Assembly: GCA_029261165.1 (NCBI GenBank)
Contig: JAJDBV010000061.1
Span: 1,731-65,730, forward strand
DNA from: Nitrospirota bacterium
Lineage (GTDB): Bacteria > Nitrospirota > Nitrospiria > SBBL01 > JAADHI01
DNA length: 64,000 nucleotides
Reading direction: 5' to 3'
The translations under genes and the position numbers were made by a program. The notes beneath the pieces were generated by a model. The model worked only from the letters and a program-made list of their open reading frames with translations, was not told where the DNA came from and did not search any database. Positions 33,971-60,248 of the stretch are shown piece by piece. Numbering within the stretch: position 1 is the stretch's first letter; every line of letters starts with the position of its first letter.

Positions 33971-34056
33971 GGAGGGGTGGCCGAGTGGCCTATGGCGGCG
34001 GTCTTGAAAACCGTTACCCGAAAGGGTCGTGGGTTCGAATCCTACCCCCTCCGCCA
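33971..34056 (+). tRNA. tRNA-Ser (anticodon TGA)
   Basis: GGAGGGG acceptor stem, anticodon loop CTTGAAA, long variable arm, GTTCGAATC, encoded CCA. Confidence 0.95.
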
Positions 34057-34135: not shown

Positions 34136-34229
34136 GGAGAGGTGGCCGAGCGGCTTAAGGCAGCGGTTTGCTAAACCGCCGTAGGGGCTTCAACCTCTAC
34201 CCAGGGTTCAAATCCCTGCCTCTCCGCCA
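34136..34229 (+). tRNA. tRNA-Ser (anticodon GCT)
   Basis: GGAGAGG acceptor stem, anticodon loop TTGCTAA, long variable arm, GTTCAAATC, encoded CCA. Confidence 0.95.
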
Positions 34230-34804: not shown

Positions 34805-34881
34805 GCGCCCATAGCTCAGTTGGATAGAGCACTTGACTACGAATCAAGGGGTCGGGAGTTCGAATCTCTCTGGGCGCACCA
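34805..34881 (+). tRNA. tRNA-Arg (anticodon ACG)
   Basis: GCGCCCA acceptor stem, anticodon loop CTACGAA, GTTCGAATC, encoded CCA. Confidence 0.96.
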
Positions 34882-35222: not shown

Positions 35223-38200
35223 ATGAAAAATGGATTACGAAGAAAGTTTATCCTTGCAGTCATTTTCCTTGGGGTTCTCTCTGTTGCGATTGCTCTAGTT
35301 GCGACTGCCTGGAGAGGGACGGCTGCACTGAGAGAGACCCTGGGAGATAACTTTCAGGGGCTGGCACACGAGACATCCCAAAAAGTCGATATCGCCATCA
35401 TCAGAGAGATTACAGTTCTCCAGCACATGAGCAATGCCGAAGTCGTAAAAGCTGCTGTGATGGAGAACAACACTCGTTATGAGGGGACTTTAGAAGCAGA
35501 GATCTTCAGGAAGATTCAGCGGGCTGAGACCGCTTGGGAGAAGAGCGATGCTGCGGCACGGGCAAAGCAGATGTCGAGCAAGGCCTCCGCGTTTCTGGAA
35601 GAATCGGTCAAGCTCGAGAAGGAGGAGGGTGTACAATTTGTGACCTTTGTGACCGATAAAGAGGGCGTCCTTGTGGCCAGCACCACTGCGGTACGACCCT
35701 ATCAATATGCCCGAGAGGACTGGTGGGTCAAAACGATGCAATTGAAGGGAGAAGCAGTCTTCCTCAGCAACGTCTATCAAAATAAAAAAACAGACCGCTA
35801 TGTCTTTGATCTGGCCGTTCCAATCTTTAATCGTGGGTCTTCTGAAGCAATCGGGGCGATAAAGATCGTATTTGACTTAAAAGGGTTTCTCAGTCCCCTC
35901 ATTGTTAAAACCCGATTTGGCCAGACCGGGCATGCCATGCTCATCGATTCAGAAGGGACCGTCCTGGCCTGTCCGATCCTTCCAACAGGGATGCATATCC
36001 CAGAGGGAGTGCTCATCACGGCAGTGACTGCCATGGATCCGGGGTGGATCGTTGCTGAGGACGATGCCCATGGGGGAAAGAACTCTATCGTCGGATTTTC
36101 TCCTGTTGGAGAAGTCTTAAACATTTCCGCCCCCTTTGACGGCAATAGATGGCACAGCTTTATCAGGCAGGCACCGGAGGAGACCTATGCCCCGATCGAC
36201 TCCCTACTCCGTACCATTTTCTATTCCGGCGGGCTTTCCATCGGATTTCTGGTCATCATCGGTTTTGTCGTTGCCGGACGGTTGGTTGAACCGATCCAAG
36301 TTCTCCAGAAAGGCGCGGAAGAGATCGGAAAGGGCGATCTGGATCACCGCCTCGATATCCGAACGGGCGATGAGATCGAGCAGCTGGCCGAAGAATTTAA
36401 CAAAATGGCGGAAAAGCTGAAGATCTCGCATGTACACCTGGAAGAAGAGGTCGCGGAAAGGACCATGGCGCTGAGAGAAACGGTCGCAAAACTACAAGAG
36501 GCAGATCGACTTAAATCCGAATTCCTCTCAAATATAAGCCATGAACTAAGGACCCCGCTTACCTCCATCATCGGTTTTTCTGAGATCCTTATTGATCAGG
36601 TCTCTGGAGACCTCAATGAAATACAGATGGGATATGTCAAGAACATGTTGCATTCAGGACAGAATCAACTGGAACTCATCAGTAATCTCTTGGATCTATC
36701 TAAGATTCGATCAGGAAGAATGCAGACGAGTCTCGAACCCTTCCGGATACAAGAGGTTCTCGATTCCACGATAATGACGATCATCCCTCTCATTGAGAAG
36801 GAAGGCCTCCATTTAGTACGTGAGATTCAGGAGGGGCTTCCAGAGATCCTCGCCGATAAAGGAAAGGTAAGACAGATTCTCTTAAACCTCTTAAGCAATG
36901 CCATTAAGTTTACCGGGGAAGGGGGAATGATCAAGATTGGAGGGCATACGACAACACATGAAAGAAAATTGTTCCTTGAAATCTCCGTAACCGATACCGG
37001 TGTCGGAATCAGGCAGAATGATCAGGAGATCATCTTTGATGAGTTCAGGCAGGTTGATGCCTCCTACACAAGAGATTATCCAGGAACGGGGCTCGGGCTT
37101 CCGATCACCAAACATTTTGTTGAGATGCATGGCGGAAGCATCTGGGTGAAGAGTGAATCCGGGAGGGGCTCTACCTTTACCTTTACATTACCGGTGGAGG
37201 TGCCAGCTGAAGGATGGACCGAAACGAAGCGCGCGGGTGGCAGGGAAACCGTAGAAGCGCAGGCGGTAAGCAAGGTGAAGCGAGAAAAGAGTCCTGTCGG
37301 TTCGGTAGGAGAAACCGACCGTCCCGTCATTTTAGTGGTCGAGGATGACCCTATGGTCAGCCAGCTCATTACCCTCCATCTGACGCAGGCAGGGTACGAG
37401 ATTGCTCATGCTTATAATGGTGACGAAGCCATTCTAAAGGCGAGGGCGCTGAACCCCTTCGCAATCACGCTCGACATTATGCTGCCGGGAAAGGACGGGT
37501 GGCAGGTCCTACAGGAGTTACAGTCGGATCTTGAAACAAGAGATATACCCGTGGTCATCCTCTCCATGGTGGAAAATACGGAGTTGGGTCTCAGCCTCGG
37601 GACAGTTGATTACCTGATGAAACCGATTGATAAGCAGGCGCTCTTAAATACCCTCACCAAACTCGACTTAAAAAAGAAGGTAATGATAAAACCGGTGACC
37701 ATCCTCGTACTCGAACACAATCCTCATATGCTGGCAGAGATAAAAAATATCCTGAGGGAGACTGCATTTGGTGTCATTTCGGCTTCGGAGATAGAAGAAG
37801 GAATTGACCTTGCCTTGGAAGGCCGACCGGACCTCATTCTTCTGGGTCTTACCGGCTTTCCTGAAGAAAATGGAATCGGTCTGCCTCAAAGGTTAGTAAA
37901 ACACCGGATCATCAAAAACATCCCGATTGTTGCCTATCTCCAGGAAGAGTTGACCCGCGAATTGAAGGAGCGCTTGGAAGGGGAGATTAGAAAGATTATC
38001 CATTATGATAAAAAATCTATTCGCGAAGCCCTCCTCTTTGAGATCAAGAAGTACGAAAAACTATACCCCGATAAGGCGAAGATGATTGACGGCTTGACAG
38101 GACTTTATAATGAGCGATACTTTAGGAGTCGTCTTGACGGCGAAGTCGAGGCCGCCTTCCGCTACAAGCGGATCTTTTCCCTCATGGCCACAAATGTCGA

Positions 38201-38609
38201 TGGGTTTAAGGAATATAATGAGCGGAACGGCGTCGAGAGAGGAAATGAGGCCCTCAGGAATATCGCAGATGCTTTTAGAATAAACCTTAGATCGGCTGAC
38301 AGCATTAGCCGATTCGGAGGATCAACCTTCATGATTTTAATGACAGAAACAATTAAGGAATCAGGGACCTTGGCTGCCGGGAAGCTACGGAGAATCGTCG
38401 AGTCTCTCTCATTCCCACATCAAGAAGGGAAGGCCAAAGAACGCCTTACCATCAGTATTGGGATTTCCACTTTTCTTACGGATGCCCAGACAGGGGAAGA
38501 GATCGTCAGTAAGGCATTCAGCGCTCTTGAACGGGCCCAGAATGAGGGAGGCAATCGTATCGTCGATGCCGGGAAGATGTTAACGGGGAGGAATCAGTCC
38601 GATGGGTAA
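35223..38609 (+). CDS. Hybrid sensor kinase: Cache-HAMP-HisKA-HATPase-REC-pseudoREC-degenerate GGDEF
   Basis: Two TM helices, HAMP (DEIEQLA..FN.M), H-box SHELRTPL, NLLSNAIKFT, DTGVG, GTGLGL, REC (ITLDIMLP), C-terminal RSAD..RFGGSTF. ATG 35223 preferred as start. Confidence 0.9.
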   Translation: MKNGLRRKFILAVIFLGVLSVAIALVATAWRGTAALRETLGDNFQGLAHETSQKVDIAIIREITVLQHMSNAEVVKAAVMENNTRYEGTLEAEIFRKIQRAETAWEKSDAAARAKQMSSKASAFLEESVKLEKEEGVQFVTFVTDKEGVLVASTTAVRPYQYAREDWWVKTMQLKGEAVFLSNVYQNKKTDRYVFDLAVPIFNRGSSEAIGAIKIVFDLKGFLSPLIVKTRFGQTGHAMLIDSEGTVLACPILPTGMHIPEGVLITAVTAMDPGWIVAEDDAHGGKNSIVGFSPVGEVLNISAPFDGNRWHSFIRQAPEETYAPIDSLLRTIFYSGGLSIGFLVIIGFVVAGRLVEPIQVLQKGAEEIGKGDLDHRLDIRTGDEIEQLAEEFNKMAEKLKISHVHLEEEVAERTMALRETVAKLQEADRLKSEFLSNISHELRTPLTSIIGFSEILIDQVSGDLNEIQMGYVKNMLHSGQNQLELISNLLDLSKIRSGRMQTSLEPFRIQEVLDSTIMTIIPLIEKEGLHLVREIQEGLPEILADKGKVRQILLNLLSNAIKFTGEGGMIKIGGHTTTHERKLFLEISVTDTGVGIRQNDQEIIFDEFRQVDASYTRDYPGTGLGLPITKHFVEMHGGSIWVKSESGRGSTFTFTLPVEVPAEGWTETKRAGGRETVEAQAVSKVKREKSPVGSVGETDRPVILVVEDDPMVSQLITLHLTQAGYEIAHAYNGDEAILKARALNPFAITLDIMLPGKDGWQVLQELQSDLETRDIPVVILSMVENTELGLSLGTVDYLMKPIDKQALLNTLTKLDLKKKVMIKPVTILVLEHNPHMLAEIKNILRETAFGVISASEIEEGIDLALEGRPDLILLGLTGFPEENGIGLPQRLVKHRIIKNIPIVAYLQEELTRELKERLEGEIRKIIHYDKKSIREALLFEIKKYEKLYPDKAKMIDGLTGLYNERYFRSRLDGEVEAAFRYKRIFSLMATNVDGFKEYNERNGVERGNEALRNIADAFRINLRSADSISRFGGSTFMILMTETIKESGTLAAGKLRRIVESLSFPHQEGKAKERLTISIGISTFLTDAQTGEEIVSKAFSALERAQNEGGNRIVDAGKMLTGRNQSDG

Positions 38610-39018: not shown

Positions 39019-41178
39019 TCAAGACGCGAGGGTCCATCCTCCCCGTTTTTCCATCTCATCCAACTGCTTGTCGAAATCGGAAGAAGGAAAAGGGCGGGCA
39101 ATATAATAGCCTTGTGCCTCATCGCAACCAAGGTCGATCAGTCGCTCCAATACCTCCCGATCTTCTACCCCTTCTGCCGTAACCCTCATGCCAAGATTGT
39201 GCCCGAGATTTATTGTGGAGCGCACGATCACCGCATCGTCTTTGTTGACAATCATGTTTGAGACAAAGGAATTATCGATCTTAATTGTTCTGGCCGAAAG
39301 CTTTCTGAGGTAAGTGAGAGAGGAATGTCCTTTGCCAAAATCATCGATGGAGATAGTGATCCCTTTTTCCACGAGTTTATTCAGAACCTCAATTGCACGG
39401 ATCTCATCTGTCATAATCGTGCTTTCGGTGACTTCCACTTCCAGAGAAGAAGGAGAAACATCAAATTTCTGAAGTAATTCTTCTATCTGATCCGGGAGTT
39501 GCGGGTCCTGAATGTTTCGGATAGCAAGGTTCACCGCGACAAAGACTTTTTTCCCGCTCTTTTTCCATCGATGGCACTGGTGCAGGGCCTCACCCAAGAC
39601 CCATCGCGTGAGCGGTTTAATCAACCCGGTCTGCTCCGCGGGCAAGATAAAGCGATCCGGAAACACCATCCCCTGTTTTGGGCGCTGCCAACGTACCAAT
39701 GCCTCCACCCCGGCGATATTTCCCGTTCGAAGATTAATCTTGGGCTGGTAATATAACATCAATTGATTTTTGTTGATTGCATGATGCAACTCTCCCATCA
39801 GGGAAATACCTTTGGGAGAGTGCTTGCCCTTCTTTGGACTGTAAATATGAAAGCCCCTCCCGCTTTGTTTGGCTTCTTTTAAAGCGACATCGGCCTTCTG
39901 GAAAAGCGGACTGGCACTTATCCCATGGTCGGGTGAGATGGCAATACCAATGCCGGCTTCGATATAAAGGGGAAGACCTTCAATCTCAAGGGGCTCCTCG
40001 AAAAACTTCAAGATTCTATTCGCCACGGGCATAATCTCTCCCACACCCCCCACAGAAAGAATAAGACCGAACTCGTCTCCACCAATGCGTGCGACCATAT
40101 GGGTAGGGCCAAATGTCTCCAACAGATCCTTGCCAACACGTTGCAATAGGAGATCGGCATAGTCAAGCCCGAGGGTGTCATTGACATCTTTGAGATGGAT
40201 GAGATTGATCAGAAGGAAGGCGATTCGTTTATTCTTATCCTCTTCAAGTAATATGGTCCTTTCCAGATGCTCTATGAAGTGAGCGCGGTTGGGGAGTCCC
40301 GTCAATCGATCATAATAGGCCATGTAATGAATCGACTTTTCCGCCCATTTCTGGTCGGTAATTTCTCGAATTATGGCCAGCCCCCCAACAACTTCATCCT
40401 CATCCCCATATATAGGTGAGTAGTGGCCCGAAAAATAACCCTCCTTCCCCGTTTCAGGAACTTTGTAGGGACGATCTTCAGAGATGACATTCTTACCTTC
40501 CAGCGCCTCGAAGAAAAATGTATCCTCGCCGCTCTCTTTCAAGAAAGGAAAGACTTCAAAGGCACATTTACCCAAGACCTTCTCTTGGCCGACACCCGTG
40601 ATCCGTTCCATGACCCGATTCCAGATGGTGTAGCGACAGTTACAATCAAAGGCCAGGATGCCATCAACACTACTGTTTATGAGATTTTCAGAAAATTCCT
40701 TCTCATTTCGAACCTTCTTCTCTGCCTGTTTACGTTCGGTGATGTCGCGTGAGAACGCGCAGTTGTACTCTTTCCCCTGGAAGACCAGAAAGTTCCTTGT
40801 GACTTCTACCGGGAAGATACTGCCGTCCTTTCTGCGATGCCAGGATTCCACCCTAAAGGAACCGTGTTGTTTTAATTCTTTCCAGGACTTAAGCCAGGCT
40901 TCCGGCGTCATGCTCGGCGCGATGTCACAAACGGACATGGAAAGCAGTTCATCTCTTGAGTATCCGAGGGTTTGACAAGCGGCTTCATTCACATAATAAA
41001 AATATCCATCAGGTTTTATGAAAAATGTAGGATCTGAAGCGTAATCGATGGAAAACTGTGCGAGTTGCAGTGCCTCTTCAACCCGTTTTTGATCGGCGAT
41101 ATCACTTTTCAATGCAGACCCTCTCTGGAAAGCTTCTTCGTTTATAGAGACATAAATTTCGACACCACAACTACTCAT
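39019..41178 (-). CDS. PAS-PAS-GGDEF-EAL protein, probable c-di-GMP phosphodiesterase
   Basis: Two PAS/PAC domains, ARIGGDEF, YQP..VEALVRW, EVTE, DDFG.G.SSL, KID and EGVE. Confidence 0.92.
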   Translation of the reverse strand: MSSCGVEIYVSINEEAFQRGSALKSDIADQKRVEEALQLAQFSIDYASDPTFFIKPDGYFYYVNEAACQTLGYSRDELLSMSVCDIAPSMTPEAWLKSWKELKQHGSFRVESWHRRKDGSIFPVEVTRNFLVFQGKEYNCAFSRDITERKQAEKKVRNEKEFSENLINSSVDGILAFDCNCRYTIWNRVMERITGVGQEKVLGKCAFEVFPFLKESGEDTFFFEALEGKNVISEDRPYKVPETGKEGYFSGHYSPIYGDEDEVVGGLAIIREITDQKWAEKSIHYMAYYDRLTGLPNRAHFIEHLERTILLEEDKNKRIAFLLINLIHLKDVNDTLGLDYADLLLQRVGKDLLETFGPTHMVARIGGDEFGLILSVGGVGEIMPVANRILKFFEEPLEIEGLPLYIEAGIGIAISPDHGISASPLFQKADVALKEAKQSGRGFHIYSPKKGKHSPKGISLMGELHHAINKNQLMLYYQPKINLRTGNIAGVEALVRWQRPKQGMVFPDRFILPAEQTGLIKPLTRWVLGEALHQCHRWKKSGKKVFVAVNLAIRNIQDPQLPDQIEELLQKFDVSPSSLEVEVTESTIMTDEIRAIEVLNKLVEKGITISIDDFGKGHSSLTYLRKLSARTIKIDNSFVSNMIVNKDDAVIVRSTINLGHNLGMRVTAEGVEDREVLERLIDLGCDEAQGYYIARPFPSSDFDKQLDEMEKRGGWTLAS

Positions 41179-43598: not shown

Positions 43599-44657
43599 CT
43601 AGCAGAAGGTCTTATCTTGACGGGATGGGATTCCCGAATTAGGGAGGCCGCCTAAACACTCCATCGACCGTGAATTCTTTCCGGCTTCGACTTCCATCAT
43701 CCGGATAGCTTGGACCCTGCCACGACCAACTTTTTTTGCCTTATCGAGGGCGTACTCTGCACAGACTAAGACCTCTTGAACCCGTTTTATCCCTGGATCC
43801 GGTATCGAGGAAATTCCAATACTGACTGACATTTTTTTTTCCTTGTCTGAGAATTCTTCTAGAGAAATCCTTCCAATTCTTTCCGAGATCGTCGTGGCAA
43901 TCAACACGGCTTTTCCTTGATCCTGCTCTGTGAGGAGCAACATAAACCCCTTTTCCCCGTTTCGGGCCAGGGTATCCACAGCCCGAACCTGTTCCTTGAT
44001 TTCCTCAGAAATCGACTTCAAGGCTTTATCCCTCACCTCTTGACCACAAGAATCAATTATTTCCTCCTCCTGATCGACTTCGATGATCAAGCAGGAAAAG
44101 GGGCTTTTATAACGACTTGTCCTTTTTAACTCTTTTGCCACAATCGCTTGAAAACGTTCTTTGCTCACAAGTCCAGTCACCGGATCAAAAATGGCAAGTG
44201 AGTCTACATTCGTGAGAAGGTCGTTGTATTCCATCTCTTTCATTTTGAGCGCATCGCTGAGTAATCTTTCTCGAACGAAGGAATCAAACCTGACTTTTAA
44301 TTCAAGCTGATCTACGGGCTTGCTAATATAATCAACCGCCCCTTCCTTCAGACAGACAATCCGTTCTTTGATCTCTTTCCTTCCACCTAACATGATGATC
44401 GGAACTTTTTTGGTGAGCATGTTTAATTTTGACCAACGGCAGACCTCTATCGCAGAGATGTCGTGCAGGGCTAAATCCAATATGATCAGATCGGGGTGCT
44501 GTGCGGAGGCAAGTTTCATCCCCTGACGGCCCGACGCAGCCAGAGTCGCCTCATTTCCCATATCATCAAACAAACGTTTGACTTCTTTCGATTCATAATC
44601 ACCGTTCCCGATAATCAGCGTTTTGACTTTCATTTCTCTCCTGAATGAAGAATTCAT
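43599..44657 (-). CDS. REC plus degenerate GGDEF protein (PleD/PopA-like)
   Basis: REC (LIILDL, YISKP), DPVTGL, RAVD I-site, active site ARNGEKGF. Confidence 0.85.
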   Translation of the reverse strand: MNSSFRREMKVKTLIIGNGDYESKEVKRLFDDMGNEATLAASGRQGMKLASAQHPDLIILDLALHDISAIEVCRWSKLNMLTKKVPIIMLGGRKEIKERIVCLKEGAVDYISKPVDQLELKVRFDSFVRERLLSDALKMKEMEYNDLLTNVDSLAIFDPVTGLVSKERFQAIVAKELKRTSRYKSPFSCLIIEVDQEEEIIDSCGQEVRDKALKSISEEIKEQVRAVDTLARNGEKGFMLLLTEQDQGKAVLIATTISERIGRISLEEFSDKEKKMSVSIGISSIPDPGIKRVQEVLVCAEYALDKAKKVGRGRVQAIRMMEVEAGKNSRSMECLGGLPNSGIPSRQDKTFC

Positions 44658-50978: not shown

Positions 50979-51161
50979 ATGTCTGACATGTTAGTCGTAA
51001 GTTCAAAAATAAAGCGATTTGTTCAGGAAAAGGCCCAATTTAATACATCGAGTGAGTTTTTGTCAGAACTAAGCCGTCAAGTTGAGAACATTTGCCTTGA
51101 AGCGATCGAGAAAACACGGGACAGCAAACGTAAAACCCTGAAAGCACGCGACCTTTCTTAA
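50979..51161 (+). CDS. Bacterial histone-fold protein (Bd0055/HBb-like)
   Basis: Strong SD AAGGAGG. Pattern LVV.SK.K...EK...NTS.E....LS..VE..C..A......RKTL.ARD matches the histone fold, including the L2 RKT..ARD clamp. Confidence 0.88.
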   Translation: MSDMLVVSSKIKRFVQEKAQFNTSSEFLSELSRQVENICLEAIEKTRDSKRKTLKARDLS

Positions 51162-51295: not shown

Positions 51296-52417
51296 TCATT
51301 TGGGTTCAGCAAGAAAAACGCAGCCCTTTCCATTTAACTTCGCGCGATACATTGCTTCATCCGCTTGTCTGATCAGAAGATGACGAATATTGTCATTCGA
51401 TGACCGCATGTCAATATGATCCCTGATAGAAGACAGTCCAATACTGCATGTCAACCTTCCCTCTATCATAACAACCTGCGCTTTGGGATGAATCGGCACG
51501 GATGTAAAAGTAAATTTTCGAATCGCGTTGCAAATGGATTCTGCAACATCTACCACTTGATTCAGGCTCGCCCGGGAGAAGATAATGACAAATTCATCAC
51601 CCCCATATCGGGCAATCGTCACTCCCTTATGTGAAACCACTTCCCTAAGAATATTGGCGACATCCTGAAGGACATGGCTTCCGGTCAAATGTCCGAACTC
51701 ATCATTGATCTCCTTAAAATGATCCATATCCATGAAGAGTAAGACGAGGTCGTCCTTACGCCGTTTTGCCAAGCGTACCTCTTCGTCCAGTTTCAGATGA
51801 AAATACCGATCATTGTAGAGACCTGTAAGGCCGTCTCGTTTTGACATTTCGCTATGTTTTCGAGCGTAGAGCACATTCTCGATTAAAGTCGATGTATATC
51901 CCGCAAAGATCTCCAAAAGTTTTAATTCTTTTTTGGAGTAATACCCTTTATCTTTTCTATTAATTAACTCAATGACACCGCAAACCGACTGTTCAACAAT
52001 AATCGGCGCACATATAATCGATCGTGTTCGAAACCGACTTAACTGATCAATCTTGGGGGAAAGATAAGTCTCCCTTTTAGAAGTTTTGCTCAGGAAGGGC
52101 TTTCCATACAAGTAGCTCGCGCCGACAATTCCGGCATTGACCGGAAGTTGAATCCCAACCAGTTTAGAGGAACCTGCACCGAAACAAGCAACAAAAACAA
52201 GTTCGTGGCATTCTGAAGAAAGACTTCTCTTTACTGAATCCTCCAAAAGAATCGATCCCGCTTCCGACGGAACAAATTGATTTGCCTTTGTAAGGATCTC
52301 CTTCAACATCAGATCCAGGCCGGGACCGCCTTGGTCCAATTCGCTCCCCTGGCGATCATAGCTCAGCAATAGATTAAGATGCCGGTTATCAAGAAGATGT
52401 AGCCTCATAATGAACAA
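51296..52417 (-). CDS. GAF-GGDEF dinucleotide cyclase with the Hypr (cGAMP synthase) signature
   Basis: GAF (T.SIICAPI..GVIELIN), DMDHFKEINDEFGHLTGS and an intact RYGGDEF. Confidence 0.88.
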   Translation of the reverse strand: MFIMRLHLLDNRHLNLLLSYDRQGSELDQGGPGLDLMLKEILTKANQFVPSEAGSILLEDSVKRSLSSECHELVFVACFGAGSSKLVGIQLPVNAGIVGASYLYGKPFLSKTSKRETYLSPKIDQLSRFRTRSIICAPIIVEQSVCGVIELINRKDKGYYSKKELKLLEIFAGYTSTLIENVLYARKHSEMSKRDGLTGLYNDRYFHLKLDEEVRLAKRRKDDLVLLFMDMDHFKEINDEFGHLTGSHVLQDVANILREVVSHKGVTIARYGGDEFVIIFSRASLNQVVDVAESICNAIRKFTFTSVPIHPKAQVVMIEGRLTCSIGLSSIRDHIDMRSSNDNIRHLLIRQADEAMYRAKLNGKGCVFLAEPK

Positions 52418-57579: not shown

Positions 57580-58752
57580 TTACAAAACCTCGTGCCAGGC
57601 ATTTAACGACAAGGGCGCATTATTTACGGCATTGCTCAAGGCGATACAACTATATTGGATGGACGAATTCCCATTTGACTTGATCCTGAAGTTCTCCCCT
57701 GTCGGATCTTCAGAAGTATTCGCCAGGAGCACCGCTCCTGTGATCGAGTCATTGCCGTTTGATTTAAAACGGTCAAACGACGTATTTCCAGTGATAATAA
57801 TTAAACCCGTCCAGTTAAAACCACCGTTGAATTCAACTCTACCTTTTTTGGTGGTCTCGCTATTGATAATTAAGATCCCATACCCATCGGCATCCCCATT
57901 AAATTTAATCCTTGCGTCTTCTCCTGTCATGCTAATGACGGTCACCTCCGGATTCGCTTGCGTTCCCCAGCTCACATCAGGATTATTCACCTTCTGATCA
58001 TCCACTAAAATCGTCCGGTCTGCATTCGCTGCAAGTGTGTTGGCAATGGTCTGAACCTCGGTCGGGTTCATATCCTCAGGTCGAAGCTGTATGCTCGGGT
58101 CCATTCCAATCCCGGTGATGGTCGCACCCCCTTTCACCCGAATCTCGTCGTAGGCGCTCACCGTGTCAACGCCCACCCCGGCCTTGTTCTGGGCACAATC
58201 GCTTCCGGCCACGGGTGTCTCGCCCGCAGGAAGGTCTCCATTGATCGTGGTATTCCCCTGAAACCTGATCCGACTAAAACCACCAGAAACGCCCAGCGAG
58301 GCATTCACCGGAACCATTGTGGAGACATTTCTCACCTCGGCCTCGATTTTCCTTGTCTCTCCGGAGGGATATTTTCCTGTGGCGGTAACATAGACGGTGT
58401 TGTCCGGGGCCAGATTGCCCTTGATGTTCGTTTTGCTTACTTCAATGCTATAGCCTAAGCCCTGAACGCCATTGAAATCTGTTACGACGAGCCAGGGCTG
58501 GGGGGCAGCCGTGACAACATCAAAGTTTTGTCCTCTCAGGGCCCGCATGGCATGCTGGATACCGGCGTCTGCCGCATAGAGGGTCTCCGATGCCACGCGT
58601 TCGTTGCCTCCCAGCTTCACCTCTGTAGAGGAAAGCATGATGCCGGCCAAACCAAGCGCGGTCACCATCACCAATATCAGCAACGAAACCACCAGGGCCA
58701 TGCCTTTCTGGTTACAATGAAGTTTATGTAGATTGATCTCCTTAATTTTCAT
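57580..58752 (-). CDS. pilX: PilX-type minor pilin, copy 2
   Basis: QKG|MALVVSLLIL prepilin site without Glu5, A.YAADAGI PilX N-terminal motif, beta-helix-like C-terminus. SD AGGAGG before ATG 58752. Confidence 0.8.
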   Translation of the reverse strand: MKIKEINLHKLHCNQKGMALVVSLLILVMVTALGLAGIMLSSTEVKLGGNERVASETLYAADAGIQHAMRALRGQNFDVVTAAPQPWLVVTDFNGVQGLGYSIEVSKTNIKGNLAPDNTVYVTATGKYPSGETRKIEAEVRNVSTMVPVNASLGVSGGFSRIRFQGNTTINGDLPAGETPVAGSDCAQNKAGVGVDTVSAYDEIRVKGGATITGIGMDPSIQLRPEDMNPTEVQTIANTLAANADRTILVDDQKVNNPDVSWGTQANPEVTVISMTGEDARIKFNGDADGYGILIINSETTKKGRVEFNGGFNWTGLIIITGNTSFDRFKSNGNDSITGAVLLANTSEDPTGENFRIKSNGNSSIQYSCIALSNAVNNAPLSLNAWHEVL

Positions 58753-58822
58753 AGTCAACCCTCCTATATCTTGCGAGGGACCTTTTCAACGGATAACATC
58801 TACGATGAGACGCTTCCGCACC

Positions 58823-58892: not shown

Positions 58893-58991
58893 TCTCCAGG
58901 CGGCCCAACCGGCATGCCTTCTAAACACATAAAGGCGAAACCTTGTGACTTTGCGTCCCGGTCTTTCGACCGGTTTGCCTTTTTCTAGAAA
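58893..58991 (-). ncRNA. GEMM-I (c-di-GMP-I class) riboswitch aptamer
   Basis: Minus strand AAGGCAAACCGGTC-GAAA-GACCGGGACGCAAAG core with a GNRA loop, P3 containing GCCTT/AAGGC, 3' GGGCCGCC, and P1 TTTCTAG/CTGGAGA. Confidence 0.88.
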
Positions 58992-59048: not shown

Positions 59049-60248
59049 TTACAATATCTGGTGCCAGGCGTTAAGCGACAAGGGCGCCTTGTTCATGGCA
59101 TTGGTCAAGGCGGTACAGCTATATTGGATGGTGGTGGCCGCCTCTACCCTGAACCTCAAATCCTCCGCCGAAGCATCGGGTTCTGTATTGGCAATAATCA
59201 CTCCCCCGGTAATGCTGGTACCGGCAGTGCCATCAAACTCGATTCGGGTCGAGCCGGTAATGATAATAATACCATCCCATGAGAATGAATCTCCGAATTC
59301 AATCCTTCCTTTCCTGTCAATATTGCTGTTCAGGATCAGGATACCGGCTCCGGTCACCGTTCCATTGAAGCGAACCCTTGAGTCATCCCCTTCCATATTG
59401 AAGACCGTCACCTGCGGATTGGCGACAGTCCCGTAGGTCGTATTCGTGTTGATCTCCGCTGTCGTGTCATTTACCGCGATGGTCCGGTCTGCATTTGTTG
59501 CAAGATCGCTTGAAAGAGCCTGAATTGCCGCCGCAGACATGTCCTGCGGCCGCAATTGAACACTCGGCGTCAAACCCATCCCGGTGATGCTTTGACCGCC
59601 GCCATCGAGTCTGATCTCATCGTAGGCACTCACCGTGTCTACGGCCACGGCTGCCTTATTTTGCGCACAGTCGCTCCCCGCGACAGGGACCTCGCCGCCG
59701 GAAAGGTCTCCATTGACGGTAACATTATCTTCGAACCTAATCTCGCTGTCGTTTCCCACAACACCCAGAGTGGAAGTGACCGGCACCATTGTGGAGAGAT
59801 TTCTCACCTCGGCCTCAATCCTCTTGAGTCCCCCACCGCTTGGATAAGTCGCCGTCGCCGTGATAAAGACCGTGTTGGCCGGGGCAATATCGCCATTGGT
59901 GTTTATTTTTTTAACATCGACAAAATAGTTTAACCCTGGGGTTCCATTGAAATTCGTTACATTAAGCCAAGGCTGGGGGGAAGCCGTGACAATATCAAAA
60001 TCTTGTCCTCTCAAGGCCCGAAGGGCATGCTGTATGCCGGCGTCTGCTGCATAGAGGGTCTCCGCCCCCACGCGTTCGTTGCCTCCCAGCTTCACCTCTG
60101 TAGAAGAGGCCATGATCCCGGCCAAACCAAGCGCAGTAATCATCACCAATATCAATAGCGAGACCACCAGGGCCACGCCTCTCTGATTAAGAGGGCGTCG
60201 GAGGATGTTCTGCCCAACGATCTCTCTATTTTTCTCGATGTCTTTCAT
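59049..60248 (-). CDS. pilX: PilX-type minor pilin, copy 1
   Basis: QRG|VALVVSLLIL and YAADAGIQHA; close paralog of 57580-58752. Confidence 0.8.
   Translation of the reverse strand: MKDIEKNREIVGQNILRRPLNQRGVALVVSLLILVMITALGLAGIMASSTEVKLGGNERVGAETLYAADAGIQHALRALRGQDFDIVTASPQPWLNVTNFNGTPGLNYFVDVKKINTNGDIAPANTVFITATATYPSGGGLKRIEAEVRNLSTMVPVTSTLGVVGNDSEIRFEDNVTVNGDLSGGEVPVAGSDCAQNKAAVAVDTVSAYDEIRLDGGGQSITGMGLTPSVQLRPQDMSAAAIQALSSDLATNADRTIAVNDTTAEINTNTTYGTVANPQVTVFNMEGDDSRVRFNGTVTGAGILILNSNIDRKGRIEFGDSFSWDGIIIITGSTRIEFDGTAGTSITGGVIIANTEPDASAEDLRFRVEAATTIQYSCTALTNAMNKAPLSLNAWHQIL

Follow-up and report, generated by a model that had tools for sequence, protein, structure and literature searches.

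The stretch of DNA analysed in this work, which we will call the window, comprises 64,000 nucleotides of a Nitrospirota bacterium genome (assembly GCA_029261165.1, contig JAJDBV010000061.1, positions 1,731 to 65,730). On its minus strand, between positions 51296 and 52408, lies a gene for a GAF-GGDEF protein in which a serine, Ser247, stands where diguanylate cyclases have the aspartate that reads guanine. This protein, the query of the searches described below, belongs to a conserved subfamily, occurring in Nitrospirota, which combines the serine of the Hypr GGDEF enzymes with an invariant aspartate at the cross-dimer position, a second selectivity site, and with the loss of the RxxD feedback site (I-site). 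Hypr GGDEF enzymes, GAF-linked ones included, were already known; the subfamily is new. Tentatively, with a probability of about 45%, we take the protein to be a ligand-gated Hypr-type cyclase, which would use ATP and GTP and make 3',3'-cGAMP (cyclic GMP-AMP) as its major product. GGDEF genes are usually counted as synthases of cyclic di-GMP (c-di-GMP), and the Hypr enzymes, only a few of which (from Geobacter, Myxococcus and Bdellovibrio) have so far been put to the test, show that one residue can redirect such an enzyme to cGAMP.

At the specificity site the DNA sequence is cat ttg acc gga agc cat gtc, which encodes H L T G S H V, the agc codon lying at 51679-51677. A phmmer search against all PDB chains returned two equal best matches, the GGDEF domain of WspR (E 4.1e-23) and 6D9M (E 4.2e-23), a T4 lysozyme fusion of the Geobacter metallireducens Hypr GGDEF domain. 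In the ungapped alignment the query reads 'efghltgShvl', 6D9M 'thghlvgSqvl' and WspR 'tfghvagDeal', which puts Ser247 on the serine of 6D9M (Ser348 of GmGacA) and on the aspartate of WspR. The serine codon (51677-51679) singled out in the original prediction, an annotation made earlier from the letters of the window alone, thus does encode the residue equivalent to D344 of PleD, and the same annotation was right about the intact RYGGDEF (51590-51610) and about the missing RxxD, whose place is taken by HKGV (51620-51631). Asn238 and Ser247 are nine residues apart, a spacing also found between N335 and D344 in PleD. The same distance separates N339 and S348 of GmGacA, the two residues which contact the base in the structure of that enzyme (PMC6456294).

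The determinants of Hypr activity described in PMC6456294 concern three places in the GGDEF domain. Serine at position 348 takes adenine, guanine and other purine nucleoside triphosphates (NTPs). According to the 'Goldilocks' rule, Ser-type enzymes need GGDE[F/Y] and never GGEEF. The third place is the cross-dimer position; in the modelled GacA dimer its residue overlies the base of the substrate held by the other subunit. It is occupied by Arg in 94% of the predicted diguanylate cyclases and by Tyr304 in GmGacA, where the Y304R replacement moves the product toward c-di-GMP. The two natural Ser-type enzymes with a cross-dimer Arg (Cabther_A1065 and Ddes1475) make more c-di-GMP, and tested Hypr enzymes with Y, S, A or Q at this position make mainly cGAMP; the identities tested in Hypr enzymes, as given in the accessible part of that publication, are Y, S, A, Q and R, Asp not being among them. 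In the alignments the cross-dimer position is the residue following the Asn of LTGLxN, which is Tyr in 6D9M, the first Arg of NRR in WspR and Asp203 in the query. All three published determinants (3/3) are thus present: Ser at 348, GGDEF and not GGEEF, and a cross-dimer residue other than Arg. The two features of canonical diguanylate cyclases, Asp at PleD position 344 and the cross-dimer Arg, are both absent. As far as such residues can tell, all three determinants point away from a canonical cyclase.

These features are shared by a large number of relatives. A search of 5.8 billion proteins yielded 3344 relatives at E <=1e-10 among 6116 candidates, and the best 120 of these were used for comparison. 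GHLxGS was found in 120 of 121 sequences (the query, an identical database entry and a further 119 relatives with identities as low as 42%), the sole sequence without it being a fragment of 244 residues in which this part is missing. RYGGDE[F/Y] was readable in 118 of these sequences, and RxxD occurred in none of the family members among the best 120 of the 3344 relatives. When 26 members sharing 41-71% identity with the query were aligned, N202, D203, R204, D230, D232, K235, N238 and D239 were invariant, as were G242, H243, S247, R270, Y271, G272, G273, D274, E275 and K360. Since the catalytic residues and Ser247 are invariant, the catalytic machinery is intact and the serine under constraint; judged from these alignments, Ser247 is a constrained family character and not a chance substitution.

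The cross-dimer Asp is just as characteristic. Among 152 aligned GGDEF domains the corresponding column contains R (76), D (26), L (13), H (7), and Y, A, S and F (5 each), and the 26 Asp rows are exactly the 26 rows of the family, all with Ser. When a profile of the 26 sequences was compared with 1.84 billion cluster representatives (50% identity), 35,711 matches were obtained at E <=1e-30, mostly generic GAF/GGDEF proteins. The full signature (cross-dimer Asp, Ser, GGDEF, no RxxD) was present in 38 of the best 150 cluster representatives, and the gene thus stands for a sizeable conserved branch, with at least this number of representatives. Within the same 150, wherever the cross-dimer residue is Asp, position 348 holds S (38), A (1) or N (1), in no case Asp; a rare variant combining Glu with Ser is also found there.

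Where the source of the relatives is named, it is a metagenome-assembled genome (MAG) of Nitrospirae, Nitrospiria, Candidatus Manganitrophaceae, 'Deltaproteobacteria' or Acidobacteriota. All carry the label diguanylate cyclase or GGDEF protein, the former being what the original prediction expected of routine annotation. We looked for the enzyme in 151 genomes sampled evenly from the phylum, the window's own among them, counting full-length relatives at E <=1e-60. It was found in 17 of the 151 (16 of the 150 others), concentrated in three families of the phylum, which we label f6 (5/6 genomes), f7 (10/12) and f12 (1/1); the same search gave 0/18 for f2 and 0/7 for f3, two families of the same class as the window's genome. 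Our literature search, judged from listings and abstracts, returned no published link of Hypr enzymes or cGAMP to Nitrospirota, in agreement with the earlier annotation, which knew of no description in this lineage; earlier lists of Ser/Thr GGDEF proteins may include members of the family.

A maximum-likelihood analysis of 126 GGDEF domains gave a tree in which the 26 family rows form one clade (SH-aLRT support 99). Six other Ser-type GAF-GGDEF proteins, including a Corallococcus protein and a second copy from the window's own genome, group together (81), and all 32 Ser-type rows join at 95. It must be noted that the Corallococcus protein stands in for GacB of Myxococcus xanthus in these trees. 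As the full columns include the signature residues, trees were also built with those three columns left out. In the 152-row tree the Ser-type rows outside the family stayed together (92), and the family clade was recovered at 91 with one stray canonical row in it; with 64 rows the support of the family clade was 100, and none of the strongly supported branches requires the serine to have arisen more than once. A tree in which the Ser types were forced together was better than the fast free tree and is not rejected (log-likelihood -17632.9 vs. -17652.1; P values of the approximately unbiased test 0.80 vs. 0.20), this comparison being based on fast LG+G4 searches in IQ-TREE, a weaker model than that used for tree building. 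The data are compatible with the Ser types having arisen only once, with a support that is not independent of the signature, and on these trees the family is most aptly regarded as a branch of its own next to the GacB-like enzymes.

The input domain appears to be of the cyclic-nucleotide-binding type. The solved GAF domains closest to that of the query are 5W10 (E 9e-12), then 1YKD of CyaB2 and those of PDE5/2/10/6, all of which bind cyclic nucleoside monophosphates (cNMPs). By analogy with GacB the ligand might be cAMP. The adenylate or guanylate cyclase families PF01295, PF00211 and PF01928 (adenylate cyclases of class I, III and IV, respectively) gave no match in the 95.18%-complete genome, which nevertheless encodes cNMP-type GAF domains and two cNMP_binding proteins, and cAMP is a possible ligand only if the adenylate cyclase is unassembled or belongs to an unrecognised class. 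We picture the enzyme as a soluble, stand-alone GAF-GGDEF protein, whose cNMP-type GAF domain would bind a small ligand; the signal would pass along the linker helix and set the geometry of the GGDEF homodimer, each half-site of which would hold one purine NTP. With Ser247 in place of the guanine-specific Asp, ATP or GTP could be accepted, and 3',3'-cGAMP would be the main product, probably together with some c-di-GMP. Lacking the RxxD I-site, the enzyme would be exempt from the feedback and cross-inhibition by c-di-GMP that are known from GacA and GacB.

A cGAMP product is suggested by the alignment of the serine, the GGDEF motif that is never GGEEF, the non-Arg cross-dimer residue, the precedent of GacB, the tree and two A20-type riboswitch aptamers. 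Several observations weigh against it. In the accessible part of PMC6456294 the tested Hypr enzymes include no member of this family, nor any enzyme with a cross-dimer Asp, and a carboxylate brought near the base in trans could favour guanine. No verified Hypr enzyme sequence is itself within the trees. The tree check proposed in the original prediction gave a divided answer: the family does join the GacB-like Ser types at SH-aLRT 95, but after removal of the signature columns the free trees do not unite the Ser types in one clade, the Ser label requiring three changes in the 152-row as well as in the 64-row tree.

Candidate receptors and degrading enzymes for cGAMP also contributed little. 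The A20 form of the GEMM-I aptamer permits cGAMP binding, and A20 aptamers are often bispecific (PMC6140456). The genome contains six GEMM-I matches, five of them above the Rfam cut-off (35 bits). Four have G20 (Vc2 numbering, the base 5' of GCAAA) and two are of A20 type, as the earlier annotation had proposed to look for: one at G000:C35:19581-19682(+) (L034; 49.3 bits), upstream of a gene for a secreted PD40/beta-propeller-repeat protein, the other at G000:C61:18980-19061(+) (L035; 29.6 bits, below the cut-off of 35), upstream of a gene for a fibronectin-III-repeat protein (G000 being the window's own genome). Across the phylum sample, where the A20-type core pattern occurs in 46 of the 151 genomes (one match with a reversed-pattern control), co-occurrence with the enzyme family was expected but not seen. 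In f7, with the enzyme in 10 of 12 genomes, the pattern was found in 0/12, and the eight aptamers read in four of its genomes were all G20. Conversely, family f10 has the pattern in 23/27 genomes and the enzyme in 0/27; the 28 GGDEF motifs read in two f10 genomes (30 best loci) had Asp in 27 cases and Ser in one, the latter in a GGEEF domain. The distribution of A20 aptamers does not follow that of Ser-type cyclases, therefore A20 is no marker of Hypr enzymes in this phylum, and we downgraded the riboswitches as evidence. The proposed search for cGAMP phosphodiesterases of the HD-GYP type ended negatively: the RxxQ/N motif which marks such enzymes (PmxA type; 10.1101/600031) was present in none of the five HD-GYP (HD_5) loci of the genome, which read RxxR, RxxK, RxxS, degenerate and RxxR. 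Thus, of the cGAMP synthase that the original prediction envisaged, the sequence determinants stand (3/3), whereas the riboswitch and HD-GYP context gives little and the cross-dimer Asp lies outside the range of residues tested; the genomic support for cGAMP signalling is weak.

The protein might, in effect, still be a diguanylate cyclase, in which the guanine-reading carboxylate has moved from its cis position (Ser247) to a trans position (Asp203), GTP being read only in the dimer and c-di-GMP being the product. This is the strongest of the alternatives, although we regard it as somewhat unlikely. Neither Asp203 nor Ser247 varies within the family, where the two are found in combination, and a cross-dimer Asp is never combined with Asp at 348, either in the 152 aligned domains or in the best 150 cluster representatives. 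Placed over the partner's base, as the cross-dimer residue is in the modelled GacA dimer (PMC6456294), an Asp could by our reasoning accept hydrogen bonds from N1-H and N2-H of guanine. In f7 the enzyme coexists, among the aptamers read, only with G20 ones, i.e. those of the c-di-GMP type. Two of the tested Ser-type enzymes already yield mostly c-di-GMP; however, these two carry Arg and not Asp at the cross-dimer position, and every non-Arg Ser-type enzyme for which results are given in the accessible part of PMC6456294 makes mainly cGAMP. Furthermore, the Asp/Ser pairing is limited to one clade, therefore it represents a single evolutionary event and not repeated covariation.

The same pairing could mean that the family, with its signature LTGLYN-D-R ... 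GHLxG-S ... RYGGDEF and no I-site, is a distinct class of synthases, in which the base is read jointly by the cis Ser and the trans Asp of the partner, and whose output is unlike that of the promiscuous Hypr enzymes. We consider this unlikely. If it were true, the outcome could be strictly heteromeric cGAMP, an adenine-rich product, or a synthesis of c-di-GMP governed by the geometry of the dimer and unresponsive to product feedback, and a signalling branch spanning Nitrospirota, Acidobacteriota and 'Deltaproteobacteria' MAGs would be masked by the annotation 'diguanylate cyclase'.

A shift to another main purine dinucleotide product, either cyclic di-AMP (c-di-AMP) or an output of cGAMP only, through a trans Asp that selects adenine, seems less probable still. 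The breadth of purine NTPs accepted by Ser348 (PMC6456294) would allow it, and the c-di-AMP synthase DAC (PF02457) gave no match in the 95%-complete genome, nor in f2 (0/18) or f3 (0/7). In other lineages, however, DAC is found beside the enzyme family (f6 6/6, f7 9/12, f12 1/1 genomes); as the two coexist, their distributions are not complementary, and we discarded, as a general explanation, the idea that the enzyme stands in for a missing c-di-AMP synthase. The genome yielded no c-di-AMP riboswitch, and with GacB the production of c-di-AMP was below detection (10.1101/600031). Finally, a catalytically dead GGDEF domain serving as receptor or scaffold is very improbable: although the D-to-S replacement kills most canonical cyclases (4/5; PMC6456294), the inactive mutants had GGEEF, whereas the family has an invariant GGDEF together with the metal-, phosphate- and base-contacting residues, and it lacks the I-site by which dead GGDEF domains usually bind c-di-GMP.

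The query is not the only Ser-type cyclase of its genome. Among 20 GGDEF domains with a complete motif the specificity residue is Asp in 16, Asn in two and Ser in two, the second of the latter belonging to a GacB-like GAF-GGDEF protein with RYGGDEF, encoded on another contig (G000:C75:26372-27478(+)). The cross-dimer residue of this enzyme is Ile, and it possesses an RxxD I-site; it resembles the query in the GAF-GGDEF architecture, the serine and RYGGDEF, and groups with it when the signature columns are kept. Its orthologues (>=47% identity, E <=4.4e-97) were encountered in 31 of the 150 other phylum genomes sampled, thus it is more widespread than the family of the query (16/150). All 18 orthologues read (18/18, plus-strand scan) share with the copy of the genome itself the Ser, RxxD, RYGGDEF and a non-Arg cross-dimer residue, which in the orthologues is Y, F, L, M, T or S. 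The original prediction, a GAF-GGDEF protein with the Hypr signature, had pointed to a Hypr-like protein, but the architecture had already been described for GacB (10.1101/600031), and this second copy could not be seen from the window.

Three further GGDEF domains are encoded in the window, at 38082-38558(+), 39856-40320(-) and 43719-44195(-), in open frames of 1166, 722 and 372 amino acids; the full-motif scan matched none of them. In a scan of one genome per species with generic GGDEF patterns, at least 607 stretches were obtained, of which 80 loci, mostly ordinary cyclases, were taken. Ser-type domains made up 5/80, and no close relative of the query was among the matches listed, so that the scan tells little about the named hosts of the family. 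The Ser-type matches listed include the GAF-GGDEF protein of Corallococcus interemptor (L037, 32% identity to the query, cross-dimer Ala) and MAG proteins with Ser or Ala at the cross-dimer position.

The positions of the gene, its domains and its active-site residues are collected in Table 1. Residue numbers are counted from the TTG with which the open reading frame begins (51296..52417(-), 373 amino acids), three codons 5' of the ATG. We take the gene as 51296-52408, because the database protein P0002 (370 amino acids, 100% identical to the query) and most relatives start at the Met corresponding to the ATG at 52408. The Pfam matches to GAF (residues 34-180) and GGDEF (193-364) bear out the architecture given in the earlier annotation. 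In the AlphaFold2 model, whose mean confidence score (pLDDT) is 78.7, with values >90 in the GGDEF domain, the long helix between the two domains is probably the signalling helix of the dimer. The best structural match of the whole model is the GAF-GGDEF protein Dcsbis of P. aeruginosa (PDB 4ZMU, Foldseek E 1.4e-19); the fold is that of an ordinary GAF-GGDEF protein, and no information on specificity was gained from it.

Table 1. Features of the GAF-GGDEF gene and protein, with positions in the window
Feature	Position	Strand	Basis
GAF-GGDEF coding sequence	51296..52408	-	370 amino acids from ATG 52408-52406
GAF sensor domain, residues 34-180	51878..52318	-	Pfam GAF/GAF_2/GAF_3
Long helix from GAF to GGDEF, residues 162-193	51839..51934	-	AlphaFold2 model
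GGDEF catalytic domain, residues 193-364	51326..51841	-	Pfam PF00990, E 9.2e-37; genome-search match C58:53056-53571; pLDDT >90
Ser247 codon agc, site of the Hypr signature (equivalent to Ser348 of GmGacA; diguanylate cyclases have Asp)	51677..51679	-	DNA, alignment, family conservation
Asn238 codon, conserved base-contacting Asn (N339 of GmGacA)	51704..51706	-	DNA, alignment; PMC6456294
Asp203 codon gat, cross-dimer position (Tyr304 of GmGacA; Arg in canonical diguanylate cyclases)	51809..51811	-	alignments with 6D9M and WspR; invariant in the family
RYGGDEF active-site motif, residues 270-276, third position Asp rather than Glu	51590..51610	-	DNA, family alignment
HKGV, residues 263-266, in place of RxxD (no I-site)	51620..51631	-	DNA, family listing

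The neighbours of the cyclase gene are housekeeping genes (a HAD hydrolase, PanE, UvrB and FtsY). Between panE and the cyclase gene there is an open reading frame of 60 amino acids (50979-51161(+)), which has no Pfam match. No common gene partner was obvious across eight related loci, an impression gained from lists of open reading frames without Pfam annotation. Three tRNA genes (Rfam RF00005) are located in the window, at 33971-34053, 34136-34226 and 34805-34878 (+).

One of the G20 GEMM-I aptamers lies in the window (58895-58988(-), 63.3 bits). Downstream of it is an open reading frame of 392 amino acids (57580-58758(-)) with a pilin/PilX-like hydrophobic N-terminus, and a paralogue of 399 amino acids (59049-60248, -) lies just upstream. 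The best Rfam name for this aptamer is c-di-GMP-I-GGC, yet it has G20 and A47. We take GGC to denote positions 20, 47 and 92 of the aptamer. The name was given to four aptamers, but they have A and not G after GACGC, and RF01051 scores equally; we treated them as ordinary G20/A47 c-di-GMP-I aptamers. Some genomes of the phylum contain numerous near-identical A20 cores (G020 and G138, for instance, with eight each). Among the HD-GYP proteins, that encoded at G000:C63:89926-90417(-) (L130, 488-amino-acid frame) reads HHLNYDLSGYP and has RxxS replacing the guanine-reading Rxx(K/R).

If the product of the enzyme is cGAMP, cGAMP signalling would extend to Nitrospirota, a phylum of nitrite, iron and manganese oxidisers; otherwise the Ser signature alone would not predict cGAMP. 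In either case the family is a natural variant which bears on the published cross-dimer model of substrate selection. Since A20-type GEMM-I aptamers abound in Nitrospirota, also in places where we saw no cyclase that would be Hypr-competent, they are unfit, taken alone, for inferring cGAMP signalling.

It is instructive to compare the query with GAF-GGDEF and Hypr proteins described previously. The solved GAF domain closest to that of the query belongs to Leptospira Lcd1 (PDB 5W10). Lcd1, which is cAMP-dependent, and Dcsbis (PDB 4ZMU) share the GAF-GGDEF architecture with the query, but they are described as diguanylate cyclases (10.1101/600031 and the PDB title, respectively). Geobacter GacA (GSU1658 / Gmet_1914; 6D9M), the founding Hypr GGDEF enzyme, aligns with the query over 177 residues (E 4.2e-23), and both keep the Ser, the Asn (N339/N238), the Asp of GGDEF and the general-base Glu. 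They differ in the input domain (Rec in GacA, GAF in the query), at the cross-dimer site (Tyr304 vs. Asp203) and at the I-site, which in the 6D9M alignment reads REVD in GacA and HKGV in the query.

The closest parallel is GacB of M. xanthus (MXAN_2643), a GMP-AMP cyclase of GAF-Hypr GGDEF type which is activated by cAMP through its GAF domain, inhibited by c-di-GMP and conserved in Corallococcus (10.1101/600031). On the strength of this conservation our comparison was made via the Corallococcus protein. GacB resembles the query in its GAF-GGDEF architecture and similar size, in the specificity Ser, RYGGDEF and a non-Arg cross-dimer residue, and, by sequence, in its cNMP-type GAF domain. It differs in having a predicted I-site, where the query has none, in its inhibition by c-di-GMP, and in its activation by cAMP, the genome of the query showing no match to the adenylate cyclase classes searched. 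The GacB-like Ser types (the loci read and the copy of the genome itself) have S, A or I at the cross-dimer position, whereas the family of the query has the invariant Asp. The GacB-like proteins, including that of Corallococcus (L037), are the group nearest to this family in the tree.

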